Shown in pieces: positions 337 to 20,801 of a stretch of 64,000 bases of DNA (the stretch's first letter is position 1; each line of letters begins with the position of its first letter). The notes under the pieces were generated by a model. That model saw nothing but the letters and a program-made list of their open reading frames with translations, did no database searches and was not told the origin of the DNA. The translations under genes were made by a program, and so were the position numbers. Source of the DNA: a virus. The DNA is taken from positions 38,229 through 102,228 of IMG/VR virus record IMGVR_UViG_3300036770_001972, one strand, 5' to 3'.

Positions 337-3300
337 TTAGAACGGAAGTTGTTCCGAATCTCCCTTGATTACTTCATGGATTGTGGCTGTATCGACCATC
401 GCGCTCAAATCCGTCTGACTGACTGTCATGACGATCTTGGAGTTGATTCCCTGAACACGACCTGTACCGATGAAGCGGGGTGTTTGGACTCCTGTCACAA
501 AGTCGGTGCCCGTCTTGCCCTTTGAAAGTCCTGTGGTGGAAAGCAAGTCGGGGCTTGAAACATTCGAATTGATTGCAAGTACCGCAAACTTGTTTTCCTC
601 CGTTCCCTGCCCAATTCCAGTTGTCTCACCGCCCTTGCTAGTACCCACATCCGAAAGAATGCGGACGAAATCCTTGATTCTCACATTTGCATTGACTGCA
701 AGAATACCAGGCCCGATGATATCGGCATCACCAACAACAACATTTCCATTCAACACCGTAGTTGGGGCACGATTGCCTTTGATGTGCGTCTTGCCGATCT
801 TGTCCAAATCACGGGTGATGTTGATTGTGCCGCCATTATCGGTGATCACGGGGAACGAATTGCGAGAGAAGATTGCACCCGCTGCCTCTGCATTAGACCC
901 GCTATCGGCAGCAAGACCATAGTAAGAATCCGACACCGTGCAATGCTTCAGAACGATGGTTCCACCATTCGTGGCATGCGCGGCAACTGGATAGTTCAGG
1001 AACATGGAGTCCCTAGCCTTGATGGTTCCACCATCAGTCTGCAAACCGATTGCGTTGCTGTATGCCCCACCCGTAATGAATGATGCCAAGGAAGCATCGG
1101 TCATCGCTGCTGTGGTGGAGTGATTGATAAACGCAATACCATCACCATCTGTTCCACCAACCGCCCAATCGCCAATGTATGTCCGTGTGTTTCTTCCTGA
1201 GAACACAGCACCATTTGAAGATGTTGTATGGATGGTAACACCGTATACATCAACCGAATTGATGTAGTTGGTGAATGTCTGATTCAGCAGATTGCCGAAT
1301 GTCATCGAACCCTCGTTCTTGACATGCAGCGTGAAATACTGTCCGCTGATTCCAACGACTTCGTGTCCACCGACGATCATGTTCATCAGACCGCCCGTGC
1401 CGCTTGTGACTCCGTCGAATCCTGAAGAGATGCCGTTGGAATTTGTCATACCACCGACAAGGGCTAGTGGTGGAAGGAAGCGAACTGCACTTCCCGTTGC
1501 CGCAATCATGCTTTGTGCCGTGCCGATGTTTACCTGAAGTGCAAACCGCGTGGTGTCTGTTGCTCCAAGTGCTGTATACAGAGGTAGGAATGTGATTCCC
1601 TGAACGGTCTGTGTAACAAGGCTTCCTTGTTCTGCACGGATGTACAAGTCGCGGTCAATGTAGTTGAACCACGGCTGATTCAATGTGTACACACCGCGAG
1701 TCAGGATGATGTCAAAAGGTGTTGCAAATGCAGATGCAGAGTCGTTGATCACCGATAGGTTGTACACGGAGGATCGATTGATCTTGACATTTGGATTCGG
1801 GGAAACCGTAAGTGGCTTCGTGAATCTCCCGTATGGGAAGGTGCTTTCATTCACAGAGTCGGTCGGATCTCTGTAATAGAAAGGTGCCTCTGTTGTCGGT
1901 GCGATGTTGCTTGCAGAGAATACCGACATCGCATAAGAGAAGTCTGTTGGATACAGAGGATCCATGGATAGATTCTGCGACAAGAAAGTCCTCGCGGGAT
2001 TGCCGACGATGCCGTTCTTGTACACGGATTCGGGTGCCAACCAAATAGATTTTGGCAGATCACCGCCTACAAATTGACAGACGCAATCCGCACCATCTGC
2101 TCCCGCAGGGCCTTGCGGGCCTGCTGGGCCTTGCGGGCCCTGACTGCCGTCTTGTCCGTCTTGTCCATCCGCTCCATCATTACCCGCAGGGCCTTGAGGG
2201 CCTTGAGGGCCTGTCTCGCCAGTTGCGCCAGTTGCGCCAGTATGACCGCGAGGGCCAATTTCAATCCCAGGTCCTTGGAATTGGCGATGTCGAATGATCC
2301 AGTTCGTAGCCACATACGGCGGCATCAAAGAGATTGGCTCATTGTCTGCCGTGAATCCTGCTTCATATGATGTCGTTTGAGCAACATCTACTGTTCTCTG
2401 AGAGGCAGCAATTGCCACACGATTGGTCGCACCTGAAGAGGAAGACTCTGTAGTGTAGAGATAGTTTCCGTGATCGGGAATCTCGTTCGATGCCAACAGG
2501 TGGGTATCATCACCACCAATCTCTCCCCGCTTCAACTCAGTCAGACCTGACGAGTATCCCACGCCGAATGCAGTTCTAGCCCGCATGTCGGGAATAAAGA
2601 ACCGCTCCGATGTTGCACCAGTTGCCTCTCCCACCTCAAGCGACTGAATCGTCACTTGAGAACTTGCGACTGCTCCGCTGAAATCAACGGGAGTGCAGCC
2701 AGGGTAATTTCTTGCATATTGGAAGCGAACTTCGGTTGTGTTTGCCGCAGTCAGCGTTCCGATTGCAAAGTCATTCGTTCCACCCCAACCAATCTTATAC
2801 TCAAGATATGTGTCATTGTCATATGCATCAACCAATCCATGTGCGGTTGTGCCTGGATAGTCTTCATGTCCCTCCGTTGAGAAAGAAATGATGACATCCC
2901 GAGCCGTGTTACCCATCGGGCCTGTTGTGCTTGAGACGAGACCCGTTACCTTGTACTTGTCCCCGATGATCTCATACAGATGGCTATAGATTTCGCCATC
3001 CATGGGATTCTCTCCGACCTTACGGACGGCAGCACCATCACAGATTCTCCAAGTGGAGGGTACTGTTTGGAAACTTCCTGCCCATGGGATCATCGATCCA
3101 ACGGGAGAGTACAGCGATGCACTTGATGTCTGTGGGAGTGCATTGATCACGAATCCCTTGTCGGTATCCGTGGCGACGATCATTCCTTGAATGTATGACG
3201 CACCATCGAAAGGACGAATCGGGGTCAGATACCCCGCATTTGTCGGTGACAGATAGTAGACATTTCCTGCGGTGAGGCTTGTTGCACCGTCATCAATGTC

Positions 3301-3561
3301 CAAGGCGGCTCCTTCGAAATCGATTTCGCCTTGGTAGACTACTGTGATCGATTCCGTCGAAGCCGCCTCGACAACACCCACCGTCTGAGATGTCTCCAAA
3401 TCATCGGCAAGACCTAGAGCGAATCCTGTAACGCCGCCCGTATAGACTACGACATTACCCGCTGCGAAACCGTGCCCTGAGGGGACAGTCCAAGTGTTGA
3501 GGATTCTGCGGCCATCACTACCGCCGCCGCCGCCGATGATTGGGATTGCACTATATGCCAT
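337..3561 (-). CDS. tail fibre protein with split tail-collar domain, collagen-like linker and C-terminal beta-helix-like region
   Basis: Collar motifs PVGSMIPWAG...WRICDG and FFIPDMRARTAFG...MPPYVATNWIIR, a (G-X-Y)n stretch, and C-terminal repeats resembling a parallel beta-helix. Confidence 0.8.
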   Translation of the reverse strand: MAYSAIPIIGGGGGSDGRRILNTWTVPSGHGFAAGNVVVYTGGVTGFALGLADDLETSQTVGVVEAASTESITVVYQGEIDFEGAALDIDDGATSLTAGNVYYLSPTNAGYLTPIRPFDGASYIQGMIVATDTDKGFVINALPQTSSASLYSPVGSMIPWAGSFQTVPSTWRICDGAAVRKVGENPMDGEIYSHLYEIIGDKYKVTGLVSSTTGPMGNTARDVIISFSTEGHEDYPGTTAHGLVDAYDNDTYLEYKIGWGGTNDFAIGTLTAANTTEVRFQYARNYPGCTPVDFSGAVASSQVTIQSLEVGEATGATSERFFIPDMRARTAFGVGYSSGLTELKRGEIGGDDTHLLASNEIPDHGNYLYTTESSSSGATNRVAIAASQRTVDVAQTTSYEAGFTADNEPISLMPPYVATNWIIRHRQFQGPGIEIGPRGHTGATGATGETGPQGPQGPAGNDGADGQDGQDGSQGPQGPAGPQGPAGADGADCVCQFVGGDLPKSIWLAPESVYKNGIVGNPARTFLSQNLSMDPLYPTDFSYAMSVFSASNIAPTTEAPFYYRDPTDSVNESTFPYGRFTKPLTVSPNPNVKINRSSVYNLSVINDSASAFATPFDIILTRGVYTLNQPWFNYIDRDLYIRAEQGSLVTQTVQGITFLPLYTALGATDTTRFALQVNIGTAQSMIAATGSAVRFLPPLALVGGMTNSNGISSGFDGVTSGTGGLMNMIVGGHEVVGISGQYFTLHVKNEGSMTFGNLLNQTFTNYINSVDVYGVTIHTTSSNGAVFSGRNTRTYIGDWAVGGTDGDGIAFINHSTTAAMTDASLASFITGGAYSNAIGLQTDGGTIKARDSMFLNYPVAAHATNGGTIVLKHCTVSDSYYGLAADSGSNAEAAGAIFSRNSFPVITDNGGTINITRDLDKIGKTHIKGNRAPTTVLNGNVVVGDADIIGPGILAVNANVRIKDFVRILSDVGTSKGGETTGIGQGTEENKFAVLAINSNVSSPDLLSTTGLSKGKTGTDFVTGVQTPRFIGTGRVQGINSKIVMTVSQTDLSAMVDTATIHEVIKGDSEQLPF
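2085..2270 (-). repeat. collagen-like G-X-Y repeat inside the fibre gene
   Basis: [57 protein letters not shown], with 9-nt periodicity in the DNA. Confidence 0.9.
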
Positions 3562-3597
3562 TAGTGGAGTTCCTACCTTTAATAGTCAGACTGCCAC

Positions 3598-3604
3598 TAT
3601 TTAG
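3598..3604 (-). promoter_or_regulatory. T4-type late promoter CTAAATA
   Basis: Intergenic, upstream of the fibre gene. The same motif precedes many genes in the window and resembles the T4 gp55 -10 box TATAAATA. Confidence 0.75.
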
Positions 3605-3613
3605 CGACAATCT

Positions 3614-4840
3614 TTACCCCTGATCGCCCTCGTTCAGGATGGCATCGGTAGCGAACTTGAGATTCGCCTCAATGCGCTCCTTCTGATCGGGCGGGAACTT
3701 GCCCTGTTGGAGCAACTGAATGCTTGCAATACGGGATTCGCGGTAGTGTCCCGTCCAAAACGCCGCGATTGCAAACTCATCCAACATTGCCCAATCGTAG
3801 ATTCCCTGCCCGACGAAAAGGGCACCTTCGGGGTATCTAACCTTTAGACCCTGCTTGGCGAACCGATAGCCCTGATCGAACCGTGAGAATGCACGGCAGA
3901 GACGGGCAGCAGCCCAAAGGCTTTCTGCTCTCCAAGGAGCGACCTGATATGCCTTGAAGTAGACCTGAATGATGTTGTCAACAGGCTTCTCCAAGATTTC
4001 CATGATACGACCCGCCTGATAGAGGCTGTAGAAGACCTCTTCATTCCAACCACCGAGATCTGCTCTCTTGAGATATGCCGCCAAAGCGGGTTCCCATTGC
4101 TGCGAGTCACGGTACGACTGAGCAAGATAGAAGTGATAACGATTGAAGTCCTTCTCTTCGACCTTGCCTGTGGCGAGAGCCGCTTCGAACTTCTCAGCAT
4201 CCTTCTTGTACTTCTCAGGATCCGAGGAACGGGCACCGTCCTGAATCGGGGTGTTCATGAATCCACGGGCAAAGTCGCGGGTGCCGATTGGATCATGGCA
4301 GTCCACATACTCATGGAGAACACCACGGTAGTAGAACCGCTTCTTGTTGCTTGTCATCTGCGGACGGTGATATCGAGTCTGTCCGAAGTGGGCGAAGATG
4401 TTGTATAGATCGGCATTCAGGGTTTCCTTGAACTTCATCGGATCGAAGCCTGGCTCATACACCAAGATCTCATCCGCATCAATCATGTATGCATAGTCGG
4501 TGTCGGTCTTCTGACACAGTTCAAGAGCCTCGCTGCGGTTGTGACCGAAGTCAACCCACGGACGCTCATGGAGTTCTCCCTTGATGCCGTTGCGCTCAAA
4601 GAAGTCCTTGATCTTTTGCTGTGTGCCGTCTGTCGATCCTGTGTCAACGATGACCCAGTAATCGATGATCGGAAGTACAGAAGAGAGGCACCGCTCAATG
4701 ACATGAGCCTCGTTCTTGACGATCATGCAAAGGCTGATCGTCTTGTGCTTCTTGTCGTTCGTGGTTGCTGTTGTGACCGCGTCTGTGGGGGAGGTCGAAA
4801 CAACATTCGTCGGTGCGTCAATCGTCATAGTCTCGCTCAT
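3614..4840 (-). CDS. family 2 glycosyltransferase with C-terminal TPR repeats
   Basis: ISLCMIVKNEAHVIERCL, IVDTGSTDGT, DFGHNRSEAL, DxD motif IDADE and YRGVLHE, followed by TPR-like helices (YHFYLAQSYRD, FYSLYQAGRI). Start set at ATG 4840 because GGAG lies just upstream; the alternative is 4852. Confidence 0.9.
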   Translation of the reverse strand: MSETMTIDAPTNVVSTSPTDAVTTATTNDKKHKTISLCMIVKNEAHVIERCLSSVLPIIDYWVIVDTGSTDGTQQKIKDFFERNGIKGELHERPWVDFGHNRSEALELCQKTDTDYAYMIDADEILVYEPGFDPMKFKETLNADLYNIFAHFGQTRYHRPQMTSNKKRFYYRGVLHEYVDCHDPIGTRDFARGFMNTPIQDGARSSDPEKYKKDAEKFEAALATGKVEEKDFNRYHFYLAQSYRDSQQWEPALAAYLKRADLGGWNEEVFYSLYQAGRIMEILEKPVDNIIQVYFKAYQVAPWRAESLWAAARLCRAFSRFDQGYRFAKQGLKVRYPEGALFVGQGIYDWAMLDEFAIAAFWTGHYRESRIASIQLLQQGKFPPDQKERIEANLKFATDAILNEGDQG

Positions 4841-4873
4841 TACAATCTCCATGATGAAAGGGGGTGTGTCAGA

Positions 4874-4880
4874 TATTTAG
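4874..4880 (-). promoter_or_regulatory. late promoter CTAAATA for the glycosyltransferase
   Basis: Intergenic motif, with a small inverted repeat CAAGGTC/GACCTTG just upstream. Confidence 0.7.
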
Positions 4881-4917
4881 TGCGCCCAAGGTCAATGCTC
4901 AAAAGACCTTGTTGAGA

Positions 4918-5259
4918 TTACGGAATTTTCGTAACTTCGGGATAGACCGTAATCATGCCCTGCACAACTCTTTGGACAGTCGCGCTTCCGTTTGAGTGCA
5001 ATTCGACATCATAAAACCAAACTCCTGCTTTGGCATTCGCAGATGCGGTAGGCCCCAAAGAAACCGTGATGTTTCCTGTTGCTCCTGTGATTGATGCCGT
5101 GAAGTTTATGCCTGTTGTCGATGAATAGAACCTACGCATCTGTGCGTATGCCGTGTATCCCGAGGCAATATCCAATGGAAGACCGTCATCCCCCTTCACC
5201 ACATAAGAGAAGGAGAAATTTGATCCCTGATCCATGTCTCTATTGATCGTTTGTGCCAT
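4918..5259 (-). CDS. small virion structural beta-sandwich protein
   Basis: The DQGSNF...LDIASGYTAYAQMRR...WFYDVEL...RVVQGMITVYPEVTK pattern is typical of small structural proteins in large T4-like phages. Confidence 0.65.
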   Translation of the reverse strand: MAQTINRDMDQGSNFSFSYVVKGDDGLPLDIASGYTAYAQMRRFYSSTTGINFTASITGATGNITVSLGPTASANAKAGVWFYDVELHSNGSATVQRVVQGMITVYPEVTKIP

Positions 5260-5273
5260 AAGTGATTAGCCTA

Positions 5274-8200
5274 TTAGGGTTTCTTGCCGATTGCCATCCA
5301 CGACGCACCGATCAGATAGTTAAGATTTCCCTCACTTGCCTTGCCCAACACAATCACACCGCCGTTTGCAGTCATTGCTGCAATTTGACCGTATGAATCT
5401 CCTGCCCCATTGAATTGAGAATATCGCGGGGTAACATTGCAAGACCATGCAACAGTTGCGAACGGAGTTGGCCAAGTTATGCTCTTGTAAAGATTGCCGC
5501 TTGAATTCGTAAGTTCTGCGCGGGGGACAAATCCCCATTGAATAAGAATTCCACCTGGTAGTTCTGTATATCCATTCTCTTGATCAGAATATGCAGATGA
5601 CTGTGAGCCACCAGTTCCCGTTTGATACCAAACAAAGCCTTCGGGATATCCTGCGGTACTTGTTGGTGGTGCAGCAGAACTGACATTATGCATCGGGCGA
5701 CAGGAAACTTCACCTGTCTTGTAGTCGATGACAAGATTGCGGGAATCTGCATCTCTCTGATTCTGATCGTAGAATGCAGTTGGGCCTGTAAGACCAAAAT
5801 TGAGGGCAGGGTACATACGCACATTGCATGTACTGCCACCCGTGATCATCAGAGAATTGCTGCCCGAAAGCGAGATACGAGCAGACTCATTGATGAAGAG
5901 TCTGTTGCCGACATAGTAATCTGCACTTACACCACCCGCCACAATCGCATCGACGCTGTCTGCGCCACCCAATCCTTGGATATTGATGTTGCCCGTAACG
6001 GTCAATGTACCATGGAAGGTATCGTCTGCATCGCGGCGAAGAACTCTAGCATTCGTGCGGAACTGCACCCTATCGGCTTCGGTAAGAGTACGAGCCGCAC
6101 CACCCTCTACCGTGTGGTTGATGTCGTAGCGAATGTAGTAGTTGTCGTGATTGTGACCCGTTAGGATCGTCGCCTGTAGACCTTTCTTGGAGCGAATGAT
6201 CCAATGCAAGCCGACATATGGGGGATAGATGCTGAACGGCGAAGGTTCAACACCAGTTCCTTGTAGACCGCCAGTTTCCGCAGTAGAAGATCCATACGAA
6301 GTGCTGAACTGATCCGTCTGCACCACGCTATTAAGTGAGTGCGTGTGTGGGGGGATGTTGTTCTCAAGCAGGATGACCTCTTCTTCGCCACCCACGGTTC
6401 CCAAGGAGATCGCGGGGGAGATCACACCGCTGCCGCTCAAGCCCGTGCCATTCGATACACCAAATGCAGTCCGTCTCCGCATGTCGGGAAGGAAGAACAC
6501 AGATCTGCCAACGGTCGATCCAACAGAGCGACCATAGACCTTGATTTCTGTATCTTCAACAACTTCGGTGAAAGGAGAGGATGCGAAAGAGACTCTGCGA
6601 GTGGCTTCGGTGACTGTGGCGACAATTACCGATGCGCTACCAGTTGTCCATACGAGCCGCAACGCATCTCCAACCGCCAAACCGCGAGTATCGCCGTCGA
6701 TGGTAATGGTACTTGCATCATAGACCGTTGCATCTGCATAATGGTTTTGACCAATTGCGGAATATAGATCATTCCACTCGTTCTGAGACTTTGCCTTGCC
6801 ATCGCAAAGCAACCAACCATCGGGAATCTGATCTATAGCACCCGCAAATGGCTGAACTGCGCCGATTGGAGCAACCGAACGAAGATAAACCAAATCACTT
6901 GGTGTATCACCAACAATGACACCCGTATAGTTGATGACATATCCCGAGTCGTATCCTGTTGCGAGGAAGATAGCCTTGCGTACTTCCCCCGCCTGTACTT
7001 CATATGCACCACCATCGGGATCGCTGATGAGGCGACCACCAACATCGGGGTGCAGATAGTATGCCTGACCAGTAGCAAGAGGATAAAGACCCGTCAAGCC
7101 ACCGCTGCCTGTCAATCCCTTGATGAATCCCTTCGTGACGAGACTGAAACAATCGCCGCTGACACTTTCAACCATGCCGATTGCTTCTGCATTGGGAACT
7201 GTGTTTGCCTGAGCGAATGTAAGAGTGCCGTCAAGATCGAATCGCAGAACATGCCCGACTTGGAACGCATGTCCTGTTTGGCAGAAACGCTTGCGAATAG
7301 CGTCTGCGCGAATCCAATCTTCATGCAAGCGACCGTCATCCAACGAAACTGGAATAGACCATGGAGTTGCTGTCGTGAGTGCATGGGCACCGTCGAGTTG
7401 ATCTGCATTGAACCACTTGACCCAATTTGTCACGGGGATATTGGGGTAAACAGCAGGCCCTGTGCTGCCCGAGTAAACTACTCCGAATGTGATTCCCGCT
7501 TCGCCCGTGGCACTATGCCACATGGTAAGTTGCTGACCTACTTGATATTTGGTAAATGGTGTTTCAGTTCCATTGAAACCAAGGTAGGTATAGGTATTGT
7601 CCGCAGCCCCATATCCATAAGAAGCAAACTTGGAGGAAACGACATGTGCGTCTGCACCAGTTACACCAATGTTTGTGTTGCTGAAGAAGCCGTACCAATC
7701 TACGCTTCCGATGGGGGCACTCTTTAGCCATACCCAATCTTTGTCACCCTGCAAGCCCTTTACGCGGATTCCAGCGGGCTGAAGCAGAGTATCGCTATAG
7801 AAGTCAGTTCCATCTACAACATCGCCCGATACTGTTACGGTTTGTTGATAGGCGGTTCCAGTAACAACCAATTTACCAGTTGCAATGATGTCGCCAACTC
7901 CACCTTCGCTAAAAGCCCCCAATCGAATAGTTCCTGTCGTGCCTGAGGGGGAGACAGACCAATTCGAAACTTGCCCAATTGTTGTTGCGTTGGCTTCTGT
8001 CGGTGGATTGATAGTATCGTGATAAAAGGCTGTGCTTCCAACATCGAACGATGTTCCAGTAAGGCTTGATCCCGAAATCGTGAACTGGACATACCGAGCG
8101 TATGCCAATTCAATCAGTTTATCTTCAATACGCAGATCATTCGAATCGATGTAAGAAATGTCATCTTGAACATTCAAGTTGCCGATGATGTTGACATTGC

Positions 8201-8669: not shown

Positions 8670-8676
8670 TTGCTAT

Positions 8677-8880
8677 TCACCGTTCCTCAATGAGTTTTGA
8701 CATGAGTGCCTTTAGTTCAGACAGTTCATGTTCCAACCTATTTATCCGATCCTTCTGAGCCTTGGCTTCTTGCTTTCGTCTCTCATATGCCTTTATCGAA
8801 TCCTTATCCGTGGAAAGCAACGCCCCCGAGCGCATGTCTCTTACCAATTTTTCATTCTGCACAGGGATCTTGTGTGTCAT
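8677..8880 (-). CDS. small coiled-coil hypothetical protein
   Basis: LVRDMRSGALLSTD..AYERRK..RINRLEHELSELKALMSKL; ATGA overlap with the upstream gene. Confidence 0.7.
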   Translation of the reverse strand: MTHKIPVQNEKLVRDMRSGALLSTDKDSIKAYERRKQEAKAQKDRINRLEHELSELKALMSKLIEER

Positions 8881-11800
8881 GTTGCGATCATCCGTAGATT
8901 GCGGATCTTTGGAACTGCGGCACCGTTGTCATCTCCGAACATCACTACCTTGATTGAGAATGTCTTGAACTTCTGAAGAGTCGTGTATCCAATGTTTGTG
9001 AAAGTGACCTCGCGGAAATCCGAGTCGGAGGACGAAACCCCTGTATCTGTGGATGTCAGTTCGACATAGTTCACATTGTCATAGTCGGGTTCACCAACAG
9101 GAACTGGACGGACGAACACCTTGACGGACGAGGCATTTGTGTTGCCCTTCTTCGGATTGCACAGCGACATCGAAACCGTAATGTTTTCGGCTTCCATACC
9201 ACTCTCCAAGGTGACCTTCTTGCTGATGTAACGGGCGGCTGTGCGGTAACCCGAAGCAACCCCCTCGTTTGTCGGCTCCAATTCTCCGTTGTACGATCCA
9301 CTTGAACTGTCTGTTACTGTTTGATTGTTGATCGTGTTGCTTACGGTGATGAAACTGGACTTCTGTAGATCAAAGATCGGAGACACATACCCGTTCGAAC
9401 TTGCGGACAGGGTGGCTACAATCTCCGATACATTGCCTTCGCCCGTAGACGAGGAAACTGTGTGATAACCACTCGCAGGAATGGTATTCTTGTTTGGAGT
9501 AAGGCTTGCGTAGTTCACGGGTGGAGAAGCCTGAACCTCAACTGCATATGCAATTCCCGTATCTTCGGGAGTCGAATCGACTGCATTCAATCTGAACTCG
9601 TTGATGTTCAGATTTGCAGAGCCGCTTGAGATTGCAGAATTCTGCACCGTTACGGTACCGCTGCTGCTGAACTTACAGACCTTTAGGCGCAATGCAAGAG
9701 TTTCGTTTTCGCTCTTTGCATACTTGCCTGAGTTCTGTGGCTTGAACAGCGACCGCATCATCGGCTGCTTGATCACACCGATCTTTGGATCCTCTTCGGA
9801 TGCTCTGATGATTGTGGATCCAATCGATCCCTTCAGAAGGGCATAATTCGAAGAGTTTGTTGAAACGCAGACCGCATACTCCTTCGCGGGAAGAAGATAG
9901 ACGGGAGTGCTGAACGGGAAGTTCGTTGCATCTGCATCACCGTCTTCGATTAGATCCACCGTAGAAATGCTTCCATCGTTGTACTTGACAGATGTGGCAA
10001 ACGGCAGCACCTTCGATGGGTGTGGGTATCCCGAAACGGTGGGTCGAATCTGCACAGTCACGGGGATCGTGCTAAGTGCATCAACACTCTCAAAGTAGAG
10101 ATCGACCGACTTTAGGAAGATACCTTGGGGATACTTGACGGGATCGACATAGAATGTCTGCGACAGCGGCTCAGAATAGCCACGAATCTCACCCGAACTT
10201 GTAAGCATTTCTGATAGGTTCGAAACTACCTTTTCAGTCTTGACTGACTTTCTTCGGGTTTCGGCAATACGGGTTGCCAACAGACCATCCTCTGACAGAG
10301 AATCATATGCACCTTCGACTGCATATGTGGCTTCTGCTGCCATCGTGGAGGAGGCGACAGAATCCGCAGAGGCAACATCCGTGATGCGAATGTTGTGCCG
10401 TCCGACCAAGAAGTTCTGTTCATATACGCCTGTCGAAGCGTTTGGATAGTTGAACAGATACTTGATCGATGCTTCACCATTTTCAGTAGTAACTTGACTT
10501 CCACCCGTGCAGTATGGGGTGACATTCATGTCATCGCAGAAGACATAGAATGTGGTGCTTGGCTTGAGTCCCTTGGCGGTGAGGGTGATTTCCTGCTGAC
10601 GAGCAACGGGCAGAACATCACGGGCTACCGTCTTGTTTGCCACAATCTTCTTCATGCTCTCAGGAGCAACAGAAGAGTTAACGCTGTTCAAAGACAATCC
10701 TTCAGCCTTGGCAGACAGCAACTTGTTTCGGACTAGATTGGGGCGATTGTTCTTGGAGTTCTGATTCTCCTTGCCGAACCAAATCGATTCCCAATCATTG
10801 AACCGAGTGCCGAATCCATAGTTGGAGTTGACTTCCCAGTTGTCATTCTCGCCCTCTACATTGACACGAACCTTTGGCTGCTTCGTGGTGTCGTACCATG
10901 TATCCGCTGCGGGGCTGATCGACAGATGCCCCATGTAGTTGATTACATTGAACGGATTGATCTGAATCGACTCGCTTGCCAACAGATGGGAGATTTCAGG
11001 AGACTGTGTGAAGGAGAGGGTATAGACACCATCGGTGGCATTGCCAGTAACCGAGGATACAACTGCTCCCGTCAGTCCATATGAGCGAGTAGAGAACGGT
11101 GGACGCAGTTCGTTGTTTTCATAATCAACGCTTGCGGCAAACATCGGATCTGCATTGTCAGCGACTGCGTGTCCCTTGAACTGATCGACCAAGATGCCGC
11201 GCTTTGGCATCTCATCTCCGTTTTCATCACGGATGCTCTTTGCCTTTGCTTCTTGCTCTAGAAGGCTAAGTGTTGTGTAGTACTCAACAGCCTCAATGCG
11301 CTTCTCAAGATCACCAATATCCCGCATCGTGTATCGCTTGTTCTCAACATAACGAATCGATGCGTCATTGCTGTTGAATGTGTACGGATTGACCTGTACG
11401 GTGTACAAAGTCATCGCATTCGGATCGTCCGCAGGAATGTCGGCGTTGAGAGACGGCGTTCCCGAGATGACTGCAAAATTGCGATCCCGAGTCAAGACGA
11501 TCTTGTCTGTTCTTGGGAGATAATGCGTATAGGTGAAGTCGTTATCGTTTGCTGCCGAATTCGTGGGAATCCACGGCGTAGCCATGATATCTCCACTCAG
11601 GCTTCTGTCGGGACGGAAGTCAATGCAGTCGCGCAACTTGTACTGTGTGCCCGTGGACTTGCTCGTATAGGTCGGGATGTTCTCATAATCGGGATACGAA
11701 GCAACCGTATATGCACCATATACATTTTCGTGAGAGTAGTACTTGAAGGTTGCGTAGAAAGGCCCAGTAACGCCTGTAACCCCTGCGCCGAGAGTCAGGC

Positions 11801-13829
11801 GAGACCAATCATAGAACGAGTCGCGCTGACCGTTGTCTAGAGTGAAATACGAGTTCAGGCTGATCCCCGAACTTGCACCCTTTGTTCCCGTGATTGACAG
11901 AAGTTCGATGACATCCGTGTATCCGTTCAGGAAGAGAGTATCAGATGTGCTGCCTCTCTCGTCACCTGTCAACGAAGACCCCCACGCGCCCGTGAGCGTG
12001 AGGCTTACTGTCTGTTCTGTCTTGTCGCGGATGTAGTTCACCATAGCCGTGGAATCATTGCCTGGTTCCTGTGTGGCGTATGTGAATACCTTTGTTCCTG
12101 CCGCAGCATTTGTAACAGTAACGGATAGTTCCGTGACATTTGCACCACGGGCGGCAGTTCCTGCAAGAACCTTGCCAGTTCCGTCGAAAACCAACACATC
12201 CGAGTCGGGAAGGCTTACAGTCGTATTGATCGGGAACTGAAGACCAGGGTCATATGAGTTGATCGTGTATGTGAATGACGATGTCGGTGCTGTTCTTGAA
12301 TCATATCCAACGATTGCATAGTCACCCGAAGAGAACGAGGTGACTCCCGAACCTTCAGGAACCTGATACAGAAGAATGTCTTGACTCTCGTTTTCCAATC
12401 CCGCACTTCCCGTGAGGGTAAACATGTGCGCCGTCAAACTGGGAAGGTGAATACGAACTGTTTCTTCGAATGATGCCGTACCCGACATCTTGATGTCATA
12501 CAACGACAAGTTGTAGACACTAGCCGAATATGGCTCCACCCAACGCATTCTTGCAGAGCCGATGACATCAAGAGCCGAACCGCTTGCACCGCGAGACAGG
12601 TTGATTGTTGGGTGTTTGGTGGGATCTTCAATTGGGTTAAACGATCCCGTGATGCCCGAGAATTCAACCTTTGTGTATGGGCCAATCGATCTGTTGAAAT
12701 CGCGGGTGACTGTTCTTTCGTGGGACTCCCCACGGGCACATGGGATGTTCAATTTTGTCTTTGCCTGAGTTTCAAACTCATATCCAAAGACATATGCTTT
12801 GCCCGAGGACAATTCCGCCTTCAGTACGGTGTTTCCGCCGCTAGAAGTTGGGCCGTTCAAAGTGAGTTCGAACGGATTGACTGTGTAGTTGCCCGATTCG
12901 TCGTATGTCCGTCTTGCAAGGGTATCCTCAAGGACTGCATAATCGGGGTACTTTTCGATCTTAACGATGTCGCCATCGACAACTCGCATGAACTCAATGA
13001 ATCCAACGCGAGAGAAGTTGTCAACGGAACTCGTATCTGATGCTGTGAATCCATTCTGAGCGACATTGAGTTCGATCTTGAATCGATCCGAGCCTGGTGC
13101 GGCATAGTTGTAAAAGCCGAAAGCGGGATCGTTCAATGATGTATCGTCAGTCGCGGTGACGAAACTCTTGTCAACAGAGAAGCCAATACGGGTCGTTGGG
13201 TTGTTGTAGTTACGGATTAGGCTACCCGCGCTGCCCGTGAGGGTATATGCACCAATCGACTGTGAATCATTCAGTACGAAATAGCCTTCGACAAATCGAA
13301 CGCCTCGTTCAACTGAGGCAACCAACGCATCACCAATGAAGCAGCAAGAAGGCCCCGTGATCGATGCTGTGATCCCAACACCGTTTGATGCTGTTGCGGC
13401 GATGACATCGTTTGCATCGAAAGTCGCCCCGCCCTCCATGTACTCAAAGAAAAGAACAGGTCTGTTTTCCTCCAAAGTGCTTCCCGAAAGACCCACTTCG
13501 GCATGAACCACACGCGCCCGAGCCTTGCCCGAAGAACTAATGACAGCACCAATGAAGTCGGCAGGATCCTCTGTCGATCCTCCCAATTCAACCTTTGCGT
13601 ACTTGACGCGATTTTCGCTGATCTGACCATCAAGAACGATGCTTCCCTCTTCGAAAACATGGGATCCCATTCTTTCGATTTGGTTCTGAAGGAGCGTCTG
13701 AATCTGCGTCAGTTCTCTTGCCTGAACACCGTAGCCAGGGCGGAACATCAACCGAAGGAACTTCTTGTCCTCCGAGAAGTCATCGTAATAGGGGTCTACA
13801 TTGAATAGGCTTGGGTCGTATGACGGCAT
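8877..13829 (-). CDS. large virion structural protein, DUF4815/VrlC-like
   Basis: N-terminal FNVDPYYDDF..FRPGYGVQARELTQIQTLLQNQIE, plus LARRTYDESGNY, NKRYTMRDIGDLEKRIEAVEYYTTLSLLE and C-terminal PKIRNLRMIAT. Confidence 0.85.
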   Translation of the reverse strand: MPSYDPSLFNVDPYYDDFSEDKKFLRLMFRPGYGVQARELTQIQTLLQNQIERMGSHVFEEGSIVLDGQISENRVKYAKVELGGSTEDPADFIGAVISSSGKARARVVHAEVGLSGSTLEENRPVLFFEYMEGGATFDANDVIAATASNGVGITASITGPSCCFIGDALVASVERGVRFVEGYFVLNDSQSIGAYTLTGSAGSLIRNYNNPTTRIGFSVDKSFVTATDDTSLNDPAFGFYNYAAPGSDRFKIELNVAQNGFTASDTSSVDNFSRVGFIEFMRVVDGDIVKIEKYPDYAVLEDTLARRTYDESGNYTVNPFELTLNGPTSSGGNTVLKAELSSGKAYVFGYEFETQAKTKLNIPCARGESHERTVTRDFNRSIGPYTKVEFSGITGSFNPIEDPTKHPTINLSRGASGSALDVIGSARMRWVEPYSASVYNLSLYDIKMSGTASFEETVRIHLPSLTAHMFTLTGSAGLENESQDILLYQVPEGSGVTSFSSGDYAIVGYDSRTAPTSSFTYTINSYDPGLQFPINTTVSLPDSDVLVFDGTGKVLAGTAARGANVTELSVTVTNAAAGTKVFTYATQEPGNDSTAMVNYIRDKTEQTVSLTLTGAWGSSLTGDERGSTSDTLFLNGYTDVIELLSITGTKGASSGISLNSYFTLDNGQRDSFYDWSRLTLGAGVTGVTGPFYATFKYYSHENVYGAYTVASYPDYENIPTYTSKSTGTQYKLRDCIDFRPDRSLSGDIMATPWIPTNSAANDNDFTYTHYLPRTDKIVLTRDRNFAVISGTPSLNADIPADDPNAMTLYTVQVNPYTFNSNDASIRYVENKRYTMRDIGDLEKRIEAVEYYTTLSLLEQEAKAKSIRDENGDEMPKRGILVDQFKGHAVADNADPMFAASVDYENNELRPPFSTRSYGLTGAVVSSVTGNATDGVYTLSFTQSPEISHLLASESIQINPFNVINYMGHLSISPAADTWYDTTKQPKVRVNVEGENDNWEVNSNYGFGTRFNDWESIWFGKENQNSKNNRPNLVRNKLLSAKAEGLSLNSVNSSVAPESMKKIVANKTVARDVLPVARQQEITLTAKGLKPSTTFYVFCDDMNVTPYCTGGSQVTTENGEASIKYLFNYPNASTGVYEQNFLVGRHNIRITDVASADSVASSTMAAEATYAVEGAYDSLSEDGLLATRIAETRRKSVKTEKVVSNLSEMLTSSGEIRGYSEPLSQTFYVDPVKYPQGIFLKSVDLYFESVDALSTIPVTVQIRPTVSGYPHPSKVLPFATSVKYNDGSISTVDLIEDGDADATNFPFSTPVYLLPAKEYAVCVSTNSSNYALLKGSIGSTIIRASEEDPKIGVIKQPMMRSLFKPQNSGKYAKSENETLALRLKVCKFSSSGTVTVQNSAISSGSANLNINEFRLNAVDSTPEDTGIAYAVEVQASPPVNYASLTPNKNTIPASGYHTVSSSTGEGNVSEIVATLSASSNGYVSPIFDLQKSSFITVSNTINNQTVTDSSSGSYNGELEPTNEGVASGYRTAARYISKKVTLESGMEAENITVSMSLCNPKKGNTNASSVKVFVRPVPVGEPDYDNVNYVELTSTDTGVSSSDSDFREVTFTNIGYTTLQKFKTFSIKVVMFGDDNGAAVPKIRNLRMIAT

Positions 13830-13841
13830 TTGCTTACCTCA

Positions 13842-16241
13842 TCAGAAGTCGATGACTATCTTTATCTCTTCCTTTTGTTCAAAACCGCGTTGAATCGGCT
13901 TCATATTCTGTATGTATAGGGTCTCTCCCGAACGATACTTGAGTTCCCCTGTGTGTACTATTTGTTGGACTTGAGCGGACGCGGTGGTTGACTCATCCAC
14001 GAAGTAGGGCGTTGTCATGCCAACATAGAACTTACCCTGCGTTCCAGTTACGCGAAGGGTGCCTGTTGTGCCTGATGCCCCCGCCGACCAATCCATTACA
14101 TATCCATTTGCCGATCCCGTGTTTCCGTAAGCAAACGCGGTATAGTCATCTTCTCTGAATGACTGTGAATCGAATTGATTATTTCCGTCATACAACATGA
14201 CTAGTGATGTTGTCTGATCGTAGACGCTGCTTCCATCCGTTGATGTTGGAACTCCACTCTTGCAGCAATCTGAATGTGCCTCAAGAATACGAATGACGCT
14301 ATCAACCGCTACAATCTCTGCCACGCCACTAAGCCCCGTTCCCACGAACCCGCTATACAGAGGATCTACCTGAGTGAGCCGTTCTCCCTGCTTGAATGTG
14401 CCCTGTGGTTCTTCCAAGTAGAGATATCCCGATTTATTCGACCCCAAAGACGGTTCCCATGCATAGACCTCTCCCGTTGCGCGGGAGGGGGGAGCAGATG
14501 TTTCGTAGTTTCCGACACCGATGGCGATGTATCCGCGAGTGAAATCTGTGCCGTTTCCGAGGAATGCAGCATCCGTTGGTGCCACTCTGAGTCGAAGAAG
14601 GCGGCGACCTTCGGTTCCCGCTACTGTCTTTTCACGAACATTCATGATGGTCAAGCCGTTTACGGTTCCACCAAACTTGAACTCACCATCTCTGATGTTC
14701 GTAAGCACCAATTCACTTGTTCCGCTGTGTCCTGAAGCACCGCTGCGCCAAGAGACGATTTCTCCATATGCTCCGCTATATCCTGCTCCAGTTGCCTGTT
14801 GTGCTGTTGCTCCTGCGATAAAAGATCCCGACACCCCGCTATCGTAGAAGTTGATTCGGACATGCTTTTCCTCTAGCAGAGGATTGAGGATCAAGCCAAA
14901 CTGACGGTATTCGTTTTCCGTGCTTACCTTCTCATTCTCGCTGCGGAAATAGTCCTTGACGATCATGATGGAGGATGCGCCAAGTTCCTTCACGGGATCC
15001 GAACCATGTCCATTTGGGGGAGACATAACAGGTTCGGCCAAGTCCTGCAAGAAGACCTTTTCTGTAGGAACATCCAACCCCTTGACGAATTCCAAGGATG
15101 CAAATGTGTAGTTCTTGCCGCCATCAACCAACTCAATCGAATCGATCAATCGGATAGTCTCAAAGAACTCCGTGCAAGCGGTAACGCCGTTTGCACCAAG
15201 AACATCGGATCCCGCAGTCAGACCAAAGCGAACAGAGACTTCTGCGCTTGTACTGTATGGGTTCGATGTGTTTACATTTGCCTCACCATCACCAACTACC
15301 TTGATGTAAGGAACGATAGAGAATGTGCTTGGACTTCCACCACCCGAAACACTTGCTGAGAACGGGTCTGCAACCGTGACAAATGCGGAACTGCCGTCTG
15401 TTGGGGTAAACGATGTAATGACCCGCCGCTGACCCAATCCCTGACCGTTGTCAATCGATAGAACCATGTCCTCATAGTATCCCTCTTGGAGGAATAGGAA
15501 CTTGGATGCCAAGGTAATTCCAGTTGCTCCCAACGCAACATCCGCAACTACCGTATTGCTTGCGGATGGGAATACGCAATTTGTGGAGACAACGAAGGGC
15601 TGAACATCGGTGTTCATCTTGATGAAGGCGATTTCGCCGTCAACAGCATCCTCCTGAACTCTCCATTGCAAGATTCTCTCGTCGTTGCTGCGGAGATATT
15701 CAACAAACTCCACGGGCATGTAGCCGATGGAATCTCCCTGTGTCTTGGTAAGGAACTTTCTCTTAGACTCAGGAATCTGATAAAGGAACTTCCAACGATA
15801 GCCGTCTGAAAGCCGCCTGATCCGCGAGTCTGTGTGCATCGGTGCCACAAGAGACGGTGAGTTGTTTGCATTGTCAATGCACTTGTATACTCTCTCCTCG
15901 TCAACCAATGCATAAAATGGTGCGGGGTTGAGGTCATCGAACAGGTCGATGTTGTCGCGGTAGGCGGTGTATACAGCCCCTGGAGTCCAATCATAGCGAC
16001 GAACGACCAAGGAAACATCCGAGCGATCAATTCTCTTGTGGGCGAAGATGCCTCTCCAAAAGTCCGTATCGTCTCTTACCGAATCAACACTTCGGGGGGG
16101 ATTCTCATCGTCTGTCCACGCAACAACCTTGCCGATTGAGAGAAACAGATTGTTTTCATCAACATCGCCATAGATGTCAAGAAGAGAACGAGCGGCAATC
16201 CGCTTGTGGTTTTGACGAAATGGGTCGCAGGATCCAGCCAT
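13842..16241 (-). CDS. gp8: baseplate wedge subunit gp8
   Basis: VVRRYDWTPG, VYKCIDNANN, SDGYRWKFLYQI, SPPNGHGSDPVKELGA, EYRQFGLI and C-terminal QKEEIKIVIDF; synteny gp6-gp7-gp8. Confidence 0.85.
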   Translation of the reverse strand: MAGSCDPFRQNHKRIAARSLLDIYGDVDENNLFLSIGKVVAWTDDENPPRSVDSVRDDTDFWRGIFAHKRIDRSDVSLVVRRYDWTPGAVYTAYRDNIDLFDDLNPAPFYALVDEERVYKCIDNANNSPSLVAPMHTDSRIRRLSDGYRWKFLYQIPESKRKFLTKTQGDSIGYMPVEFVEYLRSNDERILQWRVQEDAVDGEIAFIKMNTDVQPFVVSTNCVFPSASNTVVADVALGATGITLASKFLFLQEGYYEDMVLSIDNGQGLGQRRVITSFTPTDGSSAFVTVADPFSASVSGGGSPSTFSIVPYIKVVGDGEANVNTSNPYSTSAEVSVRFGLTAGSDVLGANGVTACTEFFETIRLIDSIELVDGGKNYTFASLEFVKGLDVPTEKVFLQDLAEPVMSPPNGHGSDPVKELGASSIMIVKDYFRSENEKVSTENEYRQFGLILNPLLEEKHVRINFYDSGVSGSFIAGATAQQATGAGYSGAYGEIVSWRSGASGHSGTSELVLTNIRDGEFKFGGTVNGLTIMNVREKTVAGTEGRRLLRLRVAPTDAAFLGNGTDFTRGYIAIGVGNYETSAPPSRATGEVYAWEPSLGSNKSGYLYLEEPQGTFKQGERLTQVDPLYSGFVGTGLSGVAEIVAVDSVIRILEAHSDCCKSGVPTSTDGSSVYDQTTSLVMLYDGNNQFDSQSFREDDYTAFAYGNTGSANGYVMDWSAGASGTTGTLRVTGTQGKFYVGMTTPYFVDESTTASAQVQQIVHTGELKYRSGETLYIQNMKPIQRGFEQKEEIKIVIDF

Positions 16242-16248
16242 TGCTTTG

Positions 16249-16255
16249 TATTTAG
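16249..16255 (-). promoter_or_regulatory. late promoter CTAAATA for gp8
   Basis: Overlaps the gp7 stop and lies 7 nt before the gp8 ATG. Confidence 0.7.
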
Positions 16256-18480
16256 AGTGCTTCCTCTACACTATCAGAAACTGTTATTTCGGGTGTTGGT
16301 GGCGGTACGAATTCATACGCAAAGAGGTGGATCTTCCTTGTGCCAGGGATCAATCTGTCCTGTTCATCCAAGATATCCATTCGAAGGGTGTGTCTTCCAT
16401 CCTTGACCAACTTCAAAACTGTTTGACGGCTGTTGATCGAAAGTGTGCTTCGGAGTTTGTTGTCCAAGTAGACTTTGATGCTCTTTGCCTTGTAGTAGGA
16501 AAGATTCCCTTCATTTTCGATTGTAAACTTCACAAGAAGTGTCCTGAAGAAGTTGTAATCGCTTTCTGATGTACCAACTGGGACTTTGGGATTGTTGGCG
16601 ATCAATCCCTCTGCGGGTGTGTTGATTGCAATCTTTGGCACGGCGACATTCACGAAGTTTTCGTTTCGGCAATCAAACTCTTGTCCCTGTGGCATGTTGA
16701 AGAATGCTCGGGCGGTGATCTTTCGGAACTCGCTGTTTTCATCGTACTCAAGCAATGCATACTTGAAGTCATAAGGCTCGGTGTAGTAAAGCCCATTTGG
16801 GCAACGATTGATTTCCCCGTTGCAAGGCTCTGAGACATCTGCCGTGATATTGAGCGGCGTAACTGTGGATAGAAGATCTCCTGCCCATTTGCCAATATCC
16901 TCTATTCTCCATCCCTCTTTGCGATATGACCACTCTGACCACCCGCCGTTTTGGGACAGGAAGTCATTGATTTGTGTATTCCAAATCTTTGCAATGTGGT
17001 AGCCACGGGAGACCATCTTGTTGGGGTGAGGATACACAATCCAAAACGGATCGGCATTTGGGAAATCATCCTCGTATAGGATTCCACTCGTTGCACCGAC
17101 AAATGCAATGTTGTTTGTCATCGGATTGCCTTGCAAAGCCAATCCATTTCCAGTTCCACGAATCAAAATATCGTGTGTATCGGGGGAGTATCCCGCAGCA
17201 GTCAGACCGCCCCCCGTCACGCCTGTGAGAAACCACAGGGAAAGGTCATCGAAGGTTTGGAATGTGTATGGCACATAGTGTCCAATGATCGGCACATGAT
17301 ATGACATGAGAGCGGATGCATTCTGTAAGTCTGCCTCCGCGCACCGCTTGATGAGAACAGACCCAAACATGGCTGTTCCAATTGGGTGTACCAATCTACG
17401 AATGATCTCTCTGTATTTGTCAACTACCACCTCAGTCTTCAGAACATACGACCAGTTTTGGTAGAAGTGATTATCCTGAAGAACTTTGTTTGTGCTGAGT
17501 CTGCCGTCATTGTTGGCGTAATATCCCGCAGACTGACAAAGGGCACCGACAGTTACCGTTCCGCTGAATCCCGAACCACGAACTGTATCGATGGCAATCG
17601 TGGGCGCGACCTTGTAGTTGATTCCGAAGTCATTGATGTCGATCTTTCGAATCGATCCCGACCCATCGACTTCGACAACTGTTCCAACAGCCTGTTGACC
17701 GCTGTCTCCGCTTGCCGCAACAAATCTGACTCTGTCGCCAATTTCATAGTCGCTGCCGCCATTAGAAATCGACAACGACGAGATAACGCTATAGACAGAA
17801 ACCTCATGGAATGACTCTTCGCCATCCGTAAAATCAATACCTAGGTTTCCCGCAGTAAAAGTTCCGTTACGACCCGAAATCAAGAGTTCTGCTACTGGAA
17901 AGTTGTCGATCTGATAGACATTGACATCGACAACACGGGCGGTTGCCAAGATAGCCCCGCTTGCACTCTTCTGTGTGATGTTATTTCCTGCTGCGCGATA
18001 GATCGTGTCGCCCAATGCATTCGATATTCTAAGGTAGTTGTTCTGCGTCCATCTTCCCGAAGAAGACCGCAAGATGTCCGTCTTGGGATAGTAGAACTCT
18101 ACCGATGTGTCGTACAGAATACGAAACAAGAACTCGTATGACTTTTCGGTTCCCTTGGCAAGATAGAACTGCTTGATGTTCTTCATCAGCCGCCGTGGAT
18201 CAACTGGCTGATTGGTGGTCTTGCTGATTGCAAGGCTCTCGGGGAAGTTCAGTAGGTACTGGGTGCGAAACTCCTCAACAAACTGATCCAAAGTGGTATC
18301 GATGTCGGGGATGTCGTGCATCGCCATGGGCGAAAGCACCTTGCCATCGTTTCGCTTCAATCCCAACCATTCATAGTATGCAGACAGAAATGCCACAAGC
18401 GTAGGATGATCCACCCGTACAAACTCAGGGAGTCTGTCGGAAACCAAGTGGGAAAGGTTGCGATCACCGTCAATGCTCAT
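16252..18480 (-). CDS. gp7: baseplate wedge initiator gp7-like
   Basis: LPEFVRVDHPTLVAFLSAYYEW, KNIKQFYLAKGTEKSYEFLFRILY, LQDNHFYQNWSYVLK and LVHPIGTAMFG; lies between gp6 and gp8. Confidence 0.8.
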   Translation of the reverse strand: MSIDGDRNLSHLVSDRLPEFVRVDHPTLVAFLSAYYEWLGLKRNDGKVLSPMAMHDIPDIDTTLDQFVEEFRTQYLLNFPESLAISKTTNQPVDPRRLMKNIKQFYLAKGTEKSYEFLFRILYDTSVEFYYPKTDILRSSSGRWTQNNYLRISNALGDTIYRAAGNNITQKSASGAILATARVVDVNVYQIDNFPVAELLISGRNGTFTAGNLGIDFTDGEESFHEVSVYSVISSLSISNGGSDYEIGDRVRFVAASGDSGQQAVGTVVEVDGSGSIRKIDINDFGINYKVAPTIAIDTVRGSGFSGTVTVGALCQSAGYYANNDGRLSTNKVLQDNHFYQNWSYVLKTEVVVDKYREIIRRLVHPIGTAMFGSVLIKRCAEADLQNASALMSYHVPIIGHYVPYTFQTFDDLSLWFLTGVTGGGLTAAGYSPDTHDILIRGTGNGLALQGNPMTNNIAFVGATSGILYEDDFPNADPFWIVYPHPNKMVSRGYHIAKIWNTQINDFLSQNGGWSEWSYRKEGWRIEDIGKWAGDLLSTVTPLNITADVSEPCNGEINRCPNGLYYTEPYDFKYALLEYDENSEFRKITARAFFNMPQGQEFDCRNENFVNVAVPKIAINTPAEGLIANNPKVPVGTSESDYNFFRTLLVKFTIENEGNLSYYKAKSIKVYLDNKLRSTLSINSRQTVLKLVKDGRHTLRMDILDEQDRLIPGTRKIHLFAYEFVPPPTPEITVSDSVEEAL

Positions 18481-20412: not shown

Positions 20413-20801
20413 CTTAGCCTCTGTAGAGCGACTGTTGTAGAGAAGACTTTCTGCACATTCTTAATGGTGAAGTGAATCGTGATTCGGATCTCATTCCTAT
20501 CTATTACATCAACCACATCAACGATGGCGTTGCTGACTCGCGGCTCGTACCGCTGAATTGTGTCTCCGATTCTTCTCTTAAGTTCGATTAGCATGATCGG
20601 ATCAACCAGTTCAAACAGCAGATCCTGAATGCCTGAACTAATCTCGGGGTGAAATGGCTTCTCTCCACGGCGATACAGCAGAAGGTTGCGGAGTGACCGC
20701 TTGATGGCTTCCTCATCCTTACGCAAAGAGACATCGCCCGACAGCGGATTGCGGTCAAAGTTGATGTCTAGGTCTATGGATGTGTTCTGTGCTTTTGCCA
20801 T
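20409..20801 (-). CDS. gp25: baseplate wedge subunit gp25
   Basis: DLDINFDRNPLSGD..AIKRSLRNLL..GEKPFHPEISSGI..YEPRV. Confidence 0.93.
   Translation of the reverse strand: MAKAQNTSIDLDINFDRNPLSGDVSLRKDEEAIKRSLRNLLLYRRGEKPFHPEISSGIQDLLFELVDPIMLIELKRRIGDTIQRYEPRVSNAIVDVVDVIDRNEIRITIHFTIKNVQKVFSTTVALQRLR

Follow-up and report, generated by a model that had tools for sequence, protein, structure and literature searches.

An uncultured, distantly T4-like myovirus encodes, among its fibre genes, a soluble glycosyltransferase (GT), here designated P0001, which probably glycosylates proteins of the virion. The stretch analysed, hereafter the window, makes up the right-hand 64 kb of an IMG/VR contig that measures 102 kb and has an estimated completeness of 57% (record IMGVR_UViG_3300036770_001972, positions 38,229 to 102,228). 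Taken as a whole, the explanation that we favour, to which we assign a probability of roughly 0.6, is that P0001 modifies threonines both in the collagen-like tracts of the fibres and in short G-x-T-[A/G] sites scattered through other virion proteins. Its first component, glycosylation of the G-x-T collagen tracts of the fibres by an enzyme resembling SgtA of Clostridioides difficile, is likely. We are more hesitant about the second, that most of the scattered sites are also used, as sequons of a glycan coat covering the particle, which is conceivable but somewhat doubtful. The interpretation offered by an initial annotation, in which this region was read as a virion O-glycosylation system, is partly supported by the analyses described below.

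In the proposed mechanism, P0001 would be a soluble cytoplasmic protein O-glycosyltransferase in which a GT-A domain is catalytic and a helical-repeat domain probably binds the substrate. Made together with the products of the fibre genes, it would act before assembly or in the course of it, moving a sugar from a host nucleotide-sugar onto Thr in the G-x-T units of virion proteins. Most secure as substrates would be the (G-x-T)n collagen tracts of three fibres of 831, 426 and 1074 amino acids (aa). The scattered G-[L/A/I/V/S]-T-[A/G] sites would be additional acceptors, created by selection many times in unrelated contexts; placed on the outer domains of the sheath, the neck, the baseplate proteins gp8 and gp7, a DUF4815 protein, the fibres and orphan proteins, they would give rise to a glycan coat.

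P0001 resembles protein-modifying glycosyltransferases

The gene for P0001 (412 aa) occupies positions 3614 to 4852 on the minus strand and lies between fibre genes, as initially annotated, although the start previously assigned at 4840 corresponds to the second ATG. The protein belongs to phrog_13126 and matches Pfam PF00535 over residues 40–131 (2.6e-10); in a family alignment of 37 members, D70, the DxD motif D125-A-D127 and H180-E181 are invariant. An AlphaFold2 model with a pLDDT of 91.8 comprises a Rossmann-like GT-A domain (residues 39–202) followed by ten helices (residues 214–410, pLDDT >90), preceded by 30 disordered residues rich in Thr and Ser. No membrane-spanning segment was found in P0001 (maximum KD(19) 1.47). 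The initial label of GT2-TPR enzyme stands with respect to the GT2 domain, but no Pfam TPR model matches P0001, a single close relative carries PF13428 and a designed TPR protein matches weakly (E 0.5), and the helical repeat is evident at the level of the fold only.

Among proteins of solved structure, those closest in sequence are the GT domain of GmaR (4e-9), ThuS (2.9e-6) and SunS (1e-4), with similarity limited to the GT domain. The best fold matches are SunS and ThuS (PDB 7msn and 7msk), which align with both domains over their full length (E ~1e-15, TM 0.58), whereas RmlT, TarP, TarS and other glycan-directed GT2 enzymes match the GT-A part only (E ~1e-7). Membership of the SunS family itself (TIGR04195) was rejected, with a score of 32.2 bits against a curated cut-off of 350. 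The predicted structure supports assignment of P0001 to GT2 enzymes of the protein-glycosylating, helical-repeat type, in agreement with the initial reading of the enzyme. The family is large, comprising 3,035 clusters at 50% identity (E<=1e-30, full-length match). Many of its cellular members are fused into proteins of 500–1900 aa together with a second copy of the module, GT25, Anp1-like or GT32-like domains, sulfotransferases, FkbM methyltransferases, a GDSL esterase or canonical TPRs, and apparently constitute single-chain glycan assembly lines.

A CTAAATA element precedes the glycosyltransferase gene

The GT gene had been credited with its own late promoter. The canonical T4 late promoter sequence TATAAATA does not occur in the 64-kb window, but the heptamer CTAAATA is present at 4874–4880 on the minus strand, 22–28 nt upstream of the GT start. 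The window contains 15 copies of this heptamer against 2.6 expected, a number that no shuffle reached, and most share the strand of the gene that they precede, whether structural or non-structural, and stand between a few and about 40 nt ahead of its start. Besides that of the GT, they include copies at 14–20, 3598–3604, 16249–16255, 28149–28155, 39008–39014, 42841–42847, 49305–49311, 49865–49871, 51158–51164, 53155–53161 and 60938–60944; among the genes preceded by the heptamer are those of a fibre, gp8, a 741-aa protein and also ribonucleotide reductase. We regard CTAAATA as a candidate promoter element in these phages, and the GT gene probably has a promoter-like element of its own, in common with neighbouring structural genes. 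Since ribonucleotide reductase is preceded by the same element, the label "late" is not borne out.

Virion proteins are enriched in a G-x-T-[A/G] motif

Motif counts were compared with expectations from shuffles of whole proteins and from local shuffles of 12–30 residues. Collagen was masked by removing tracts of at least three G-X-Y, and strictly isolated sites were defined as those with no G at position −3 and no G..G following. In the structural set, G-x-[TS]-[GA] was observed 152 times against 56–64 expected (z ~12), compared with 17 against 14–15 in non-structural open reading frames (ORFs), and both the mirror motif and a frame-shifted motif were at chance level. After collagen masking, the ORFs of the structural module retained 70 G-x-T-[GA] sites against 23–27 expected (about 3x, z 8–10), whereas all other ORFs had 9 against 6–7, upholding the contrast between structural and non-structural proteins that had been drawn by eye. 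The region from 337 to 18480, where the motif was originally described, alone contains 25 sites against 7.9–9.4 expected (z 5.3–5.6; the largest of 200 shuffles gave 16), and strictly isolated sites number 73 against 29.5 expected. The motif was at first thought to accept Thr or Ser, but only Thr is enriched: masked G-x-S-[GA] occurs 28 times against 22–25 expected, and no enrichment was seen under the same masking for any of the other 18 residues at position 3, including V (1.04) and I (0.97).

A position scan in two genomes defined the consensus as G-[L/A/I/V/S]-T-[A/G], with L preferred at the second position (GLT[GA], 41 observed against 5.5 expected) and G alone enriched at the first (2.5x, z 13). 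At the fourth position both A and G are favoured (G-x-T-A, 108 against 35.5; G-x-T-G, 88 against 42.6), while V, D and E remain at chance, though their codons likewise start with G. Every Gly codon and every Thr codon (four each) is represented at the sites, which indicates that the constraint acts on the protein. For 65 of the 73 sites the flanking residues are unrelated to those of any other site, implying that the motif arose in many unrelated contexts; amplification of a paralogous domain as its source is ruled out by the same result. The motif reported initially is thus confirmed and sharpened.

The motif excess is confined largely to phages that carry the enzyme

Scans of viral contigs yielded about 60 loci from the clade to which the window belongs (GT identity 57–99%, gp8 identity 66–95%), which we compared with 58 loci of more distant T4-like phages with baseplate and fibre genes of the same types. 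At genome scale, three GT-carrying genomes (G000, G001 and G002) were set against three GT-less ones that are complete or nearly so (G005, G006 and G008). Neither protein nor profile searches detected a member of the GT family in the latter; G006 yielded only a weak 271-aa GT2-like match.

Pooled over the clade loci, G-x-T-[GA] was found 945 times against 312 expected (3.03x; mirror motif 1.05), compared with 306 against 280 (1.09x) in the distant loci, and the median ratio per locus was 3.08 and 1.07, respectively. The gp8 orthologues of the clade carry 7.1 sites per 1000 aa and the distant ones 1.5. Across whole genomes the ratios were 2.84x, 2.37x and 2.3x in G000, G001 and G002, and 0.90x, 1.44x and 1.05x in G005, G006 and G008; for strictly isolated sites the corresponding values were 2.47x, 2.38x and 2.18x as opposed to 0.97x, 1.58x and 0.91x. 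The motif excess is therefore absent from T4-like phages without the enzyme, with G006 as a mild exception. It is present in a sister lineage (L038–L041) in which the GT is 57% and the core proteins 36–56% identical, and which keeps the gene order of LtfC-like gene, GT and collagen fibre. Between G000 and G002, 24 sites are kept, 25 lost and 23 gained, with totals of 49 and 47, so that the density of sites is held while their positions turn over.

Relatives of P0001 are encoded beside G-x-T collagen-like proteins

Neighbourhoods of the GT family outside this clade were examined in 80 bacterial loci encoding homologues 40–48% identical to P0001, of which 65 were used for analysis of distances. 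In many of these, drawn from the Alpha-, Beta- and Gammaproteobacteria, Streptomyces, Chlamydiota, Polyangia, Bacteroidota and Cyanobacteriota, a gene for a BclA-like (GAT/GPT)n protein directly adjoins the GT gene. ORFs containing at least three consecutive G-x-T units made up 18 of 177 within 1 kb of the GT, 6 of 151 at 1–3 kb and 1 of 324 at 3–8 kb; 19 of the 65 loci have such an ORF within 3 kb, on the same strand in 16 of 24 cases and upstream in 19 of 24. In the cultured Acidobacteria jumbo phage Tunturi_5, 3.7 kb separate the gene of a homologue (gp35) from that of a (GAT/GPT)n tail fibre (gp29), which has 66 G-x-T-G sites against 8.8 expected. On a giant-virus-like contig (GVMAG; L051 and L053, 16238–20512 on the minus strand and 20582–21082 on the plus strand), GT homologues of 388 aa and, as a fusion, 1424 aa are found, and the partial ORF adjoining the fused form has 23 G-x-T-[GA] sites in 167 aa. 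Other distant GT-bearing viral loci (L044–L050) have neighbours poor in G and T and were uninformative. Because of the bacterial, Tunturi_5 and giant-virus-like neighbourhoods, the tie between this GT family and G-x-T collagen-like proteins is well supported independently of the phage in the window. The window itself fits the pattern, with the GT gene directly upstream of a fibre gene that encodes a G-x-T collagen tract.

Distribution of sites among the virion proteins

All of the genes given with window coordinates in this section are on the minus strand. The fibre encoded directly downstream of the GT (1074 aa; 337–3561) has a collagen tract and a Collar domain (Pfam Collagen and Collar, tail fibre PHROGs) and 9 G-x-T-[GA] sites. 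Directly upstream lies a gene for a 113-aa LtfC-like β-sandwich or fibre-assembly-like protein (4918–5259; phrog_1084, phrog_3304 and a weak Pfam LtfC match) with 3 sites, against 0.4 expected for G-x-[TS]-[GA], followed by that of a 1131-aa fibre with a Collar domain and a gp53-like C-terminus (5274–8669), which has 8 G-x-T-[GA] sites and 13 of the broader motif against 5.0 expected. Further along the window, the 831-aa collagen-like tail fibre (56499–58994; tail fibre and collagen-like PHROGs) has 102–111 collagen residues in a long uninterrupted G-X-Y tract with Thr at Y, some 37 G-x-T triplets (GAT, GFT, GNT and GVT) and 30 G-x-T-G sites, and is the most BclA-like candidate substrate; in the collagen tracts of G000, Thr occupies 49% of Y positions. 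A 426-aa G/T-rich fibre-like protein (54788–56068; no PHROG match) has a short G-x-T collagen tract and 10 sites, and the fibre-like genes at 59015–62331, encoding proteins of 324, 311, 188 and 261 aa, contribute 4, 4, fewer than 2 and 6 G-x-T-[GA] sites, respectively.

Every peptide cited in the initial annotation was found in the proteins named there: LGATG, FGLTAG, NGVTA, AGATA and GTTG in gp8, LTGVTGGG in gp7, GITASITG, SGITGS, AGVTGVTG and YGLTG in the DUF4815 protein, SITGATG in the 113-aa protein, and AGATG and LGATA in the 741-aa protein. The gp8-like baseplate wedge protein (799 aa; 13842–16241; Pfam Phage-Gp8, phrog_438) bears a long extension and has 6 G-x-T-[GA] sites, or 13 G-x-[TS]-[GA] against 2.1 expected (z 7.8). 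In an alignment of gp8 across the clade, x varies while G, T and A/G are fixed at residues 340 (RFG[L/I/G/A]TA) and 477 (G[A/G/S/L]TAQ), and GTTG at 724 is unchanged. Two sites, GVTG and GLTA at residues 420–428, are present in the 742-aa gp7-like wedge subunit (16252–18480; Pfam Baseplate_wedge, phrog_17744), and 6 each in the 1650-aa DUF4815 protein (8877–13829; Pfam DUF4815 2e-58, phrog_358) and in the 741-aa protein, which has no family or PHROG match (47053–49278; 7 of the broader motif against 1.6 expected). The DUF4815 protein is encoded between gp8 and the fibres and is covered only in part by the DUF4815 domain; its match to phrog_358, a family of unknown function, extends to 1e-273, and it is a large conserved virion protein of this phage group.

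The excess resides in lineage-specific or outer parts, namely residues 96–314 of the sheath, the gp8 extension, the DUF4815 protein, the fibres, neck proteins, two small unknown proteins and orphans. All 6 sites of the sheath fall within residues 96–314, beyond the conserved part that can be aligned with T4 gp18; the outward-facing domains of T4 gp18 lie in this stretch. With collagen masked, the major capsid protein has 1 site, no excess over its GT-less orthologues (2, 3 and 1).

Comparison with characterised glycosylation systems

The precedent invoked initially, glycosylation of collagen-like BclA spore proteins, is genuine. C. difficile SgtA is a 358-aa enzyme with a GT-A domain and TPRs whose gene adjoins bclA3, and it places β-O-linked N-acetylglucosamine (GlcNAc) on Thr of BclA3 GATG and GPTG peptides, one of which has only a single GATG (PMC7157674). 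Both systems combine a soluble GT-A enzyme that continues into a helical or TPR-type domain (358 and 412 aa) with an adjacent gene for a (G-x-T)n collagen-like protein. The phage GT differs in its location in a T4-like fibre module and in the presence of scattered G-[L/A/I/V/S]-T-[A/G] sites, often ending in A, across many virion proteins that are not collagen-like.

In Listeria monocytogenes GmaR, a TPR domain comes after the GT domain and has been proposed as the part that recognises the protein substrate (PMC9638930). GmaR shares this plan with P0001 and, as noted above, gives the best sequence match to the GT domain among solved structures, but the similarity spans only about 120 residues and GmaR is a 637-aa protein with linker and antirepressor domains and a regulatory role, whose substrate is flagellin (modified with O-GlcNAc) rather than G-x-T repeats. 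The glycocin S-glycosyltransferases SunS and ThuS share the GT-A and helical-repeat fold over their full length, but at 15–17% identity, and SunS modifies Cys of a small secreted peptide, for which no gene was seen here.

To our knowledge, virion self-glycosylation has been documented in few phages, namely mycobacteriophages, and we know of no case among T4-like phages. Freeman et al., writing in Cell Host Microbe in 2023, are said to have found that mycobacteriophage GTs encoded near structural genes modify the phages' own virion proteins, reportedly on C-terminal regions of capsid and tail-tube proteins and not at a short dispersed G-x-T sequon. The mycobacteriophages differ from the present phage, whose virion glycosylation is a prediction, in host phylum, phage type and enzymes. 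Among the papers searched, none was found that describes virion glycosylation of this kind in T4-like phages.

Alternative explanations

Several observations weigh against use of the scattered sites, and many of them would be expected if the enzyme acted on the collagen (G-x-T)n tracts only and the scattered G-[L/A/I/V]-T-[A/G] sites were an unglycosylated structural habit of the lineage, such as a β-turn or strand-end motif. Every partner of the GT family outside the clade is of the collagen type with G at position 4, this residue occurring 903 times and A only 17 times in the bacterial collagen partners; G-x-T-A is not a known acceptor, and its near-absence there makes acceptance of G-x-T-A by the enzyme an assumption. 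Tunturi_5 has both the GT and a G-x-T collagen fibre, yet its genome-wide ratio for scattered sites is 0.82x, with no excess. A predicted gp8 model of low confidence (pLDDT 57) places the sites where strands and loops meet. The positions of sites turn over, and conservation of the motif Thr (67%) barely exceeds that of other Thr (58%). The GT-less genome G006 (L152–L160) has 51 isolated sites against 32 expected (z 3.2). The idea that the motif had spread even into conserved baseplate subunits holds only for gp8 and weakly for gp7; gp6 has no sites, and across 20 core orthogroups from five genomes the clade, with 10 sites, shows no excess over GT-less orthologues (7, 12 and 5); comparison of orthologues, suggested initially as a check on the proposal, gave no difference in this set. 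Moreover, the co-occurrence of enzyme and motif at the level of phages amounts essentially to one gain event, in one clade and a sister lineage with conserved gene order. SgtA also takes Ser in vitro (PMC7157674, Table 2), whereas Ser is not enriched in the phage, and the likeness of P0001 to SgtA is one of described domain plan, size and gene context rather than of aligned sequence. Even so, we regard restriction of the enzyme to the collagen tracts as a rather unlikely explanation of the whole: a structural motif would be expected in the outer proteins of GT-less T4-like phages, yet the 58 distant loci show no appreciable excess; the β-branched residues V and I are not enriched at position 3; 65 of 73 sites lie in unrelated contexts; and gp8 retains G, T and A/G while x varies.

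It is improbable that P0001 instead acts on some component of the host, for example a surface glycan, flagellin, pilin or a collagen-like protein, and so alters the infected cell, with the virion motif being unrelated. Relatives of P0001 are annotated as "glycosyltransferase involved in cell wall biosynthesis" or "beta-1,4-glycosyltransferase", bacterial homologues are common, CTAAATA also precedes a non-structural gene, and papers on cyanophages usually take phage GTs to be modifiers of the host surface or of DNA (PMC12801897). However, P0001 is soluble and lacks a membrane segment, its fold and nearest characterised relatives are those of protein or peptide GTs rather than polysaccharide GTs, its gene is fixed within the fibre module in an order conserved in two lineages, and the phage itself encodes abundant G-x-T substrates beside it. 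That the motif excess is simply an artefact is scarcely credible. The proteins are indeed rich in G, T, S and A, and collagen tracts supply many G-x-T-G matches, but the excess persists under collagen masking, local shuffling and the strict definition of isolated sites, the mirror and frame-shifted motifs are at chance, position 4 excludes V, D and E, and all synonymous codons are used; an origin in composition, collagen or DNA-level bias is rejected on these grounds.

Genomic context and additional features

The gp6 of the phage is at most 38% identical to that of cultured phages such as Pelagibacter phage HTVC008M, Methylophilales phage Melnitz and cyanophages, and megablast of the region against phage records gave no match, which together indicate only distant kinship to cultured T4-like phages. 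The contigs have the look of assemblies from freshwater metagenomes. Between 337 and 18480 every gene is on the minus strand, with the gp6-like gene just beyond, and the GT is flanked by the 1131-aa fibre and LtfC-like genes upstream and by the 1074-aa collagen/Collar fibre gene downstream. Fibre-like genes fill the window from 53 to 64 kb, and genes for the major head protein, the scaffold, the sheath and its stabiliser, and neck proteins are found on the contig upstream of the window. Also upstream of the window, between the prohead protease and portal genes, are two small paralogous Thr-rich proteins of 150 and 128 aa (15–19% Thr; L170:8609–9061 and L170:9061–9447, both on the minus strand, equivalent to G000 26837–27675). 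They have no PHROG match and contain 2 and 4 motif sites (GLTG, GLTA, GVTG, GITA and GATA), and may be capsid-associated or decoration proteins.

Other members of the clade contain a sugar island in a region that is not on the contig of the window, adjoining RecA-like and DNA polymerase genes. In G001 (120.5–127.3 kb; L140:490–7291) and at its counterpart in G002 (~42–54 kb), which differ in content, the genes of this island encode an NAD-dependent epimerase/dehydratase, a weakly GT47-like protein, two GT2 enzymes and a polysaccharide deacetylase, and the island could serve to extend a glycan. In G001, a gene close to that of the DNA polymerase (L140:10121–11044, minus strand) encodes a member of the Mom family (PF25680, 1e-12), which suggests that DNA base modification occurs in the clade.

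Implications

We tentatively propose, with less confidence than for use of the scattered sites themselves, that these phages have evolved a glycan shield. It would be built by one soluble SgtA-like enzyme acting on a minimal, portable sequon, G-[L/A/I/V/S]-T-[A/G], that has arisen convergently at dozens of unrelated surface positions and whose density is maintained amid turnover, as in the shields of enveloped animal viruses; the variable sugar island of clade members could diversify the glycan. Should the scattered motif prove to be a genuine sequon, it would rank among the shortest defined for O-glycosylation of the bacterial type by one soluble enzyme and would be useful for glyco-engineering.

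T4-like phages have the best-studied virion architecture, and the availability of cultured Tunturi_5, together with co-expression in Escherichia coli, makes the glycosylation idea directly testable. The pairing of GT and G-x-T collagen-like genes across the family predicts that many bacterial collagen-like surface proteins outside the Firmicutes are glycoproteins. For the phages themselves, a functional sequon would mean that a glycan coat can evolve by multiplication of acceptor sites, which would bear on how phages recognise hosts, withstand proteases and grazers, and aggregate, and on how their particles are recognised.

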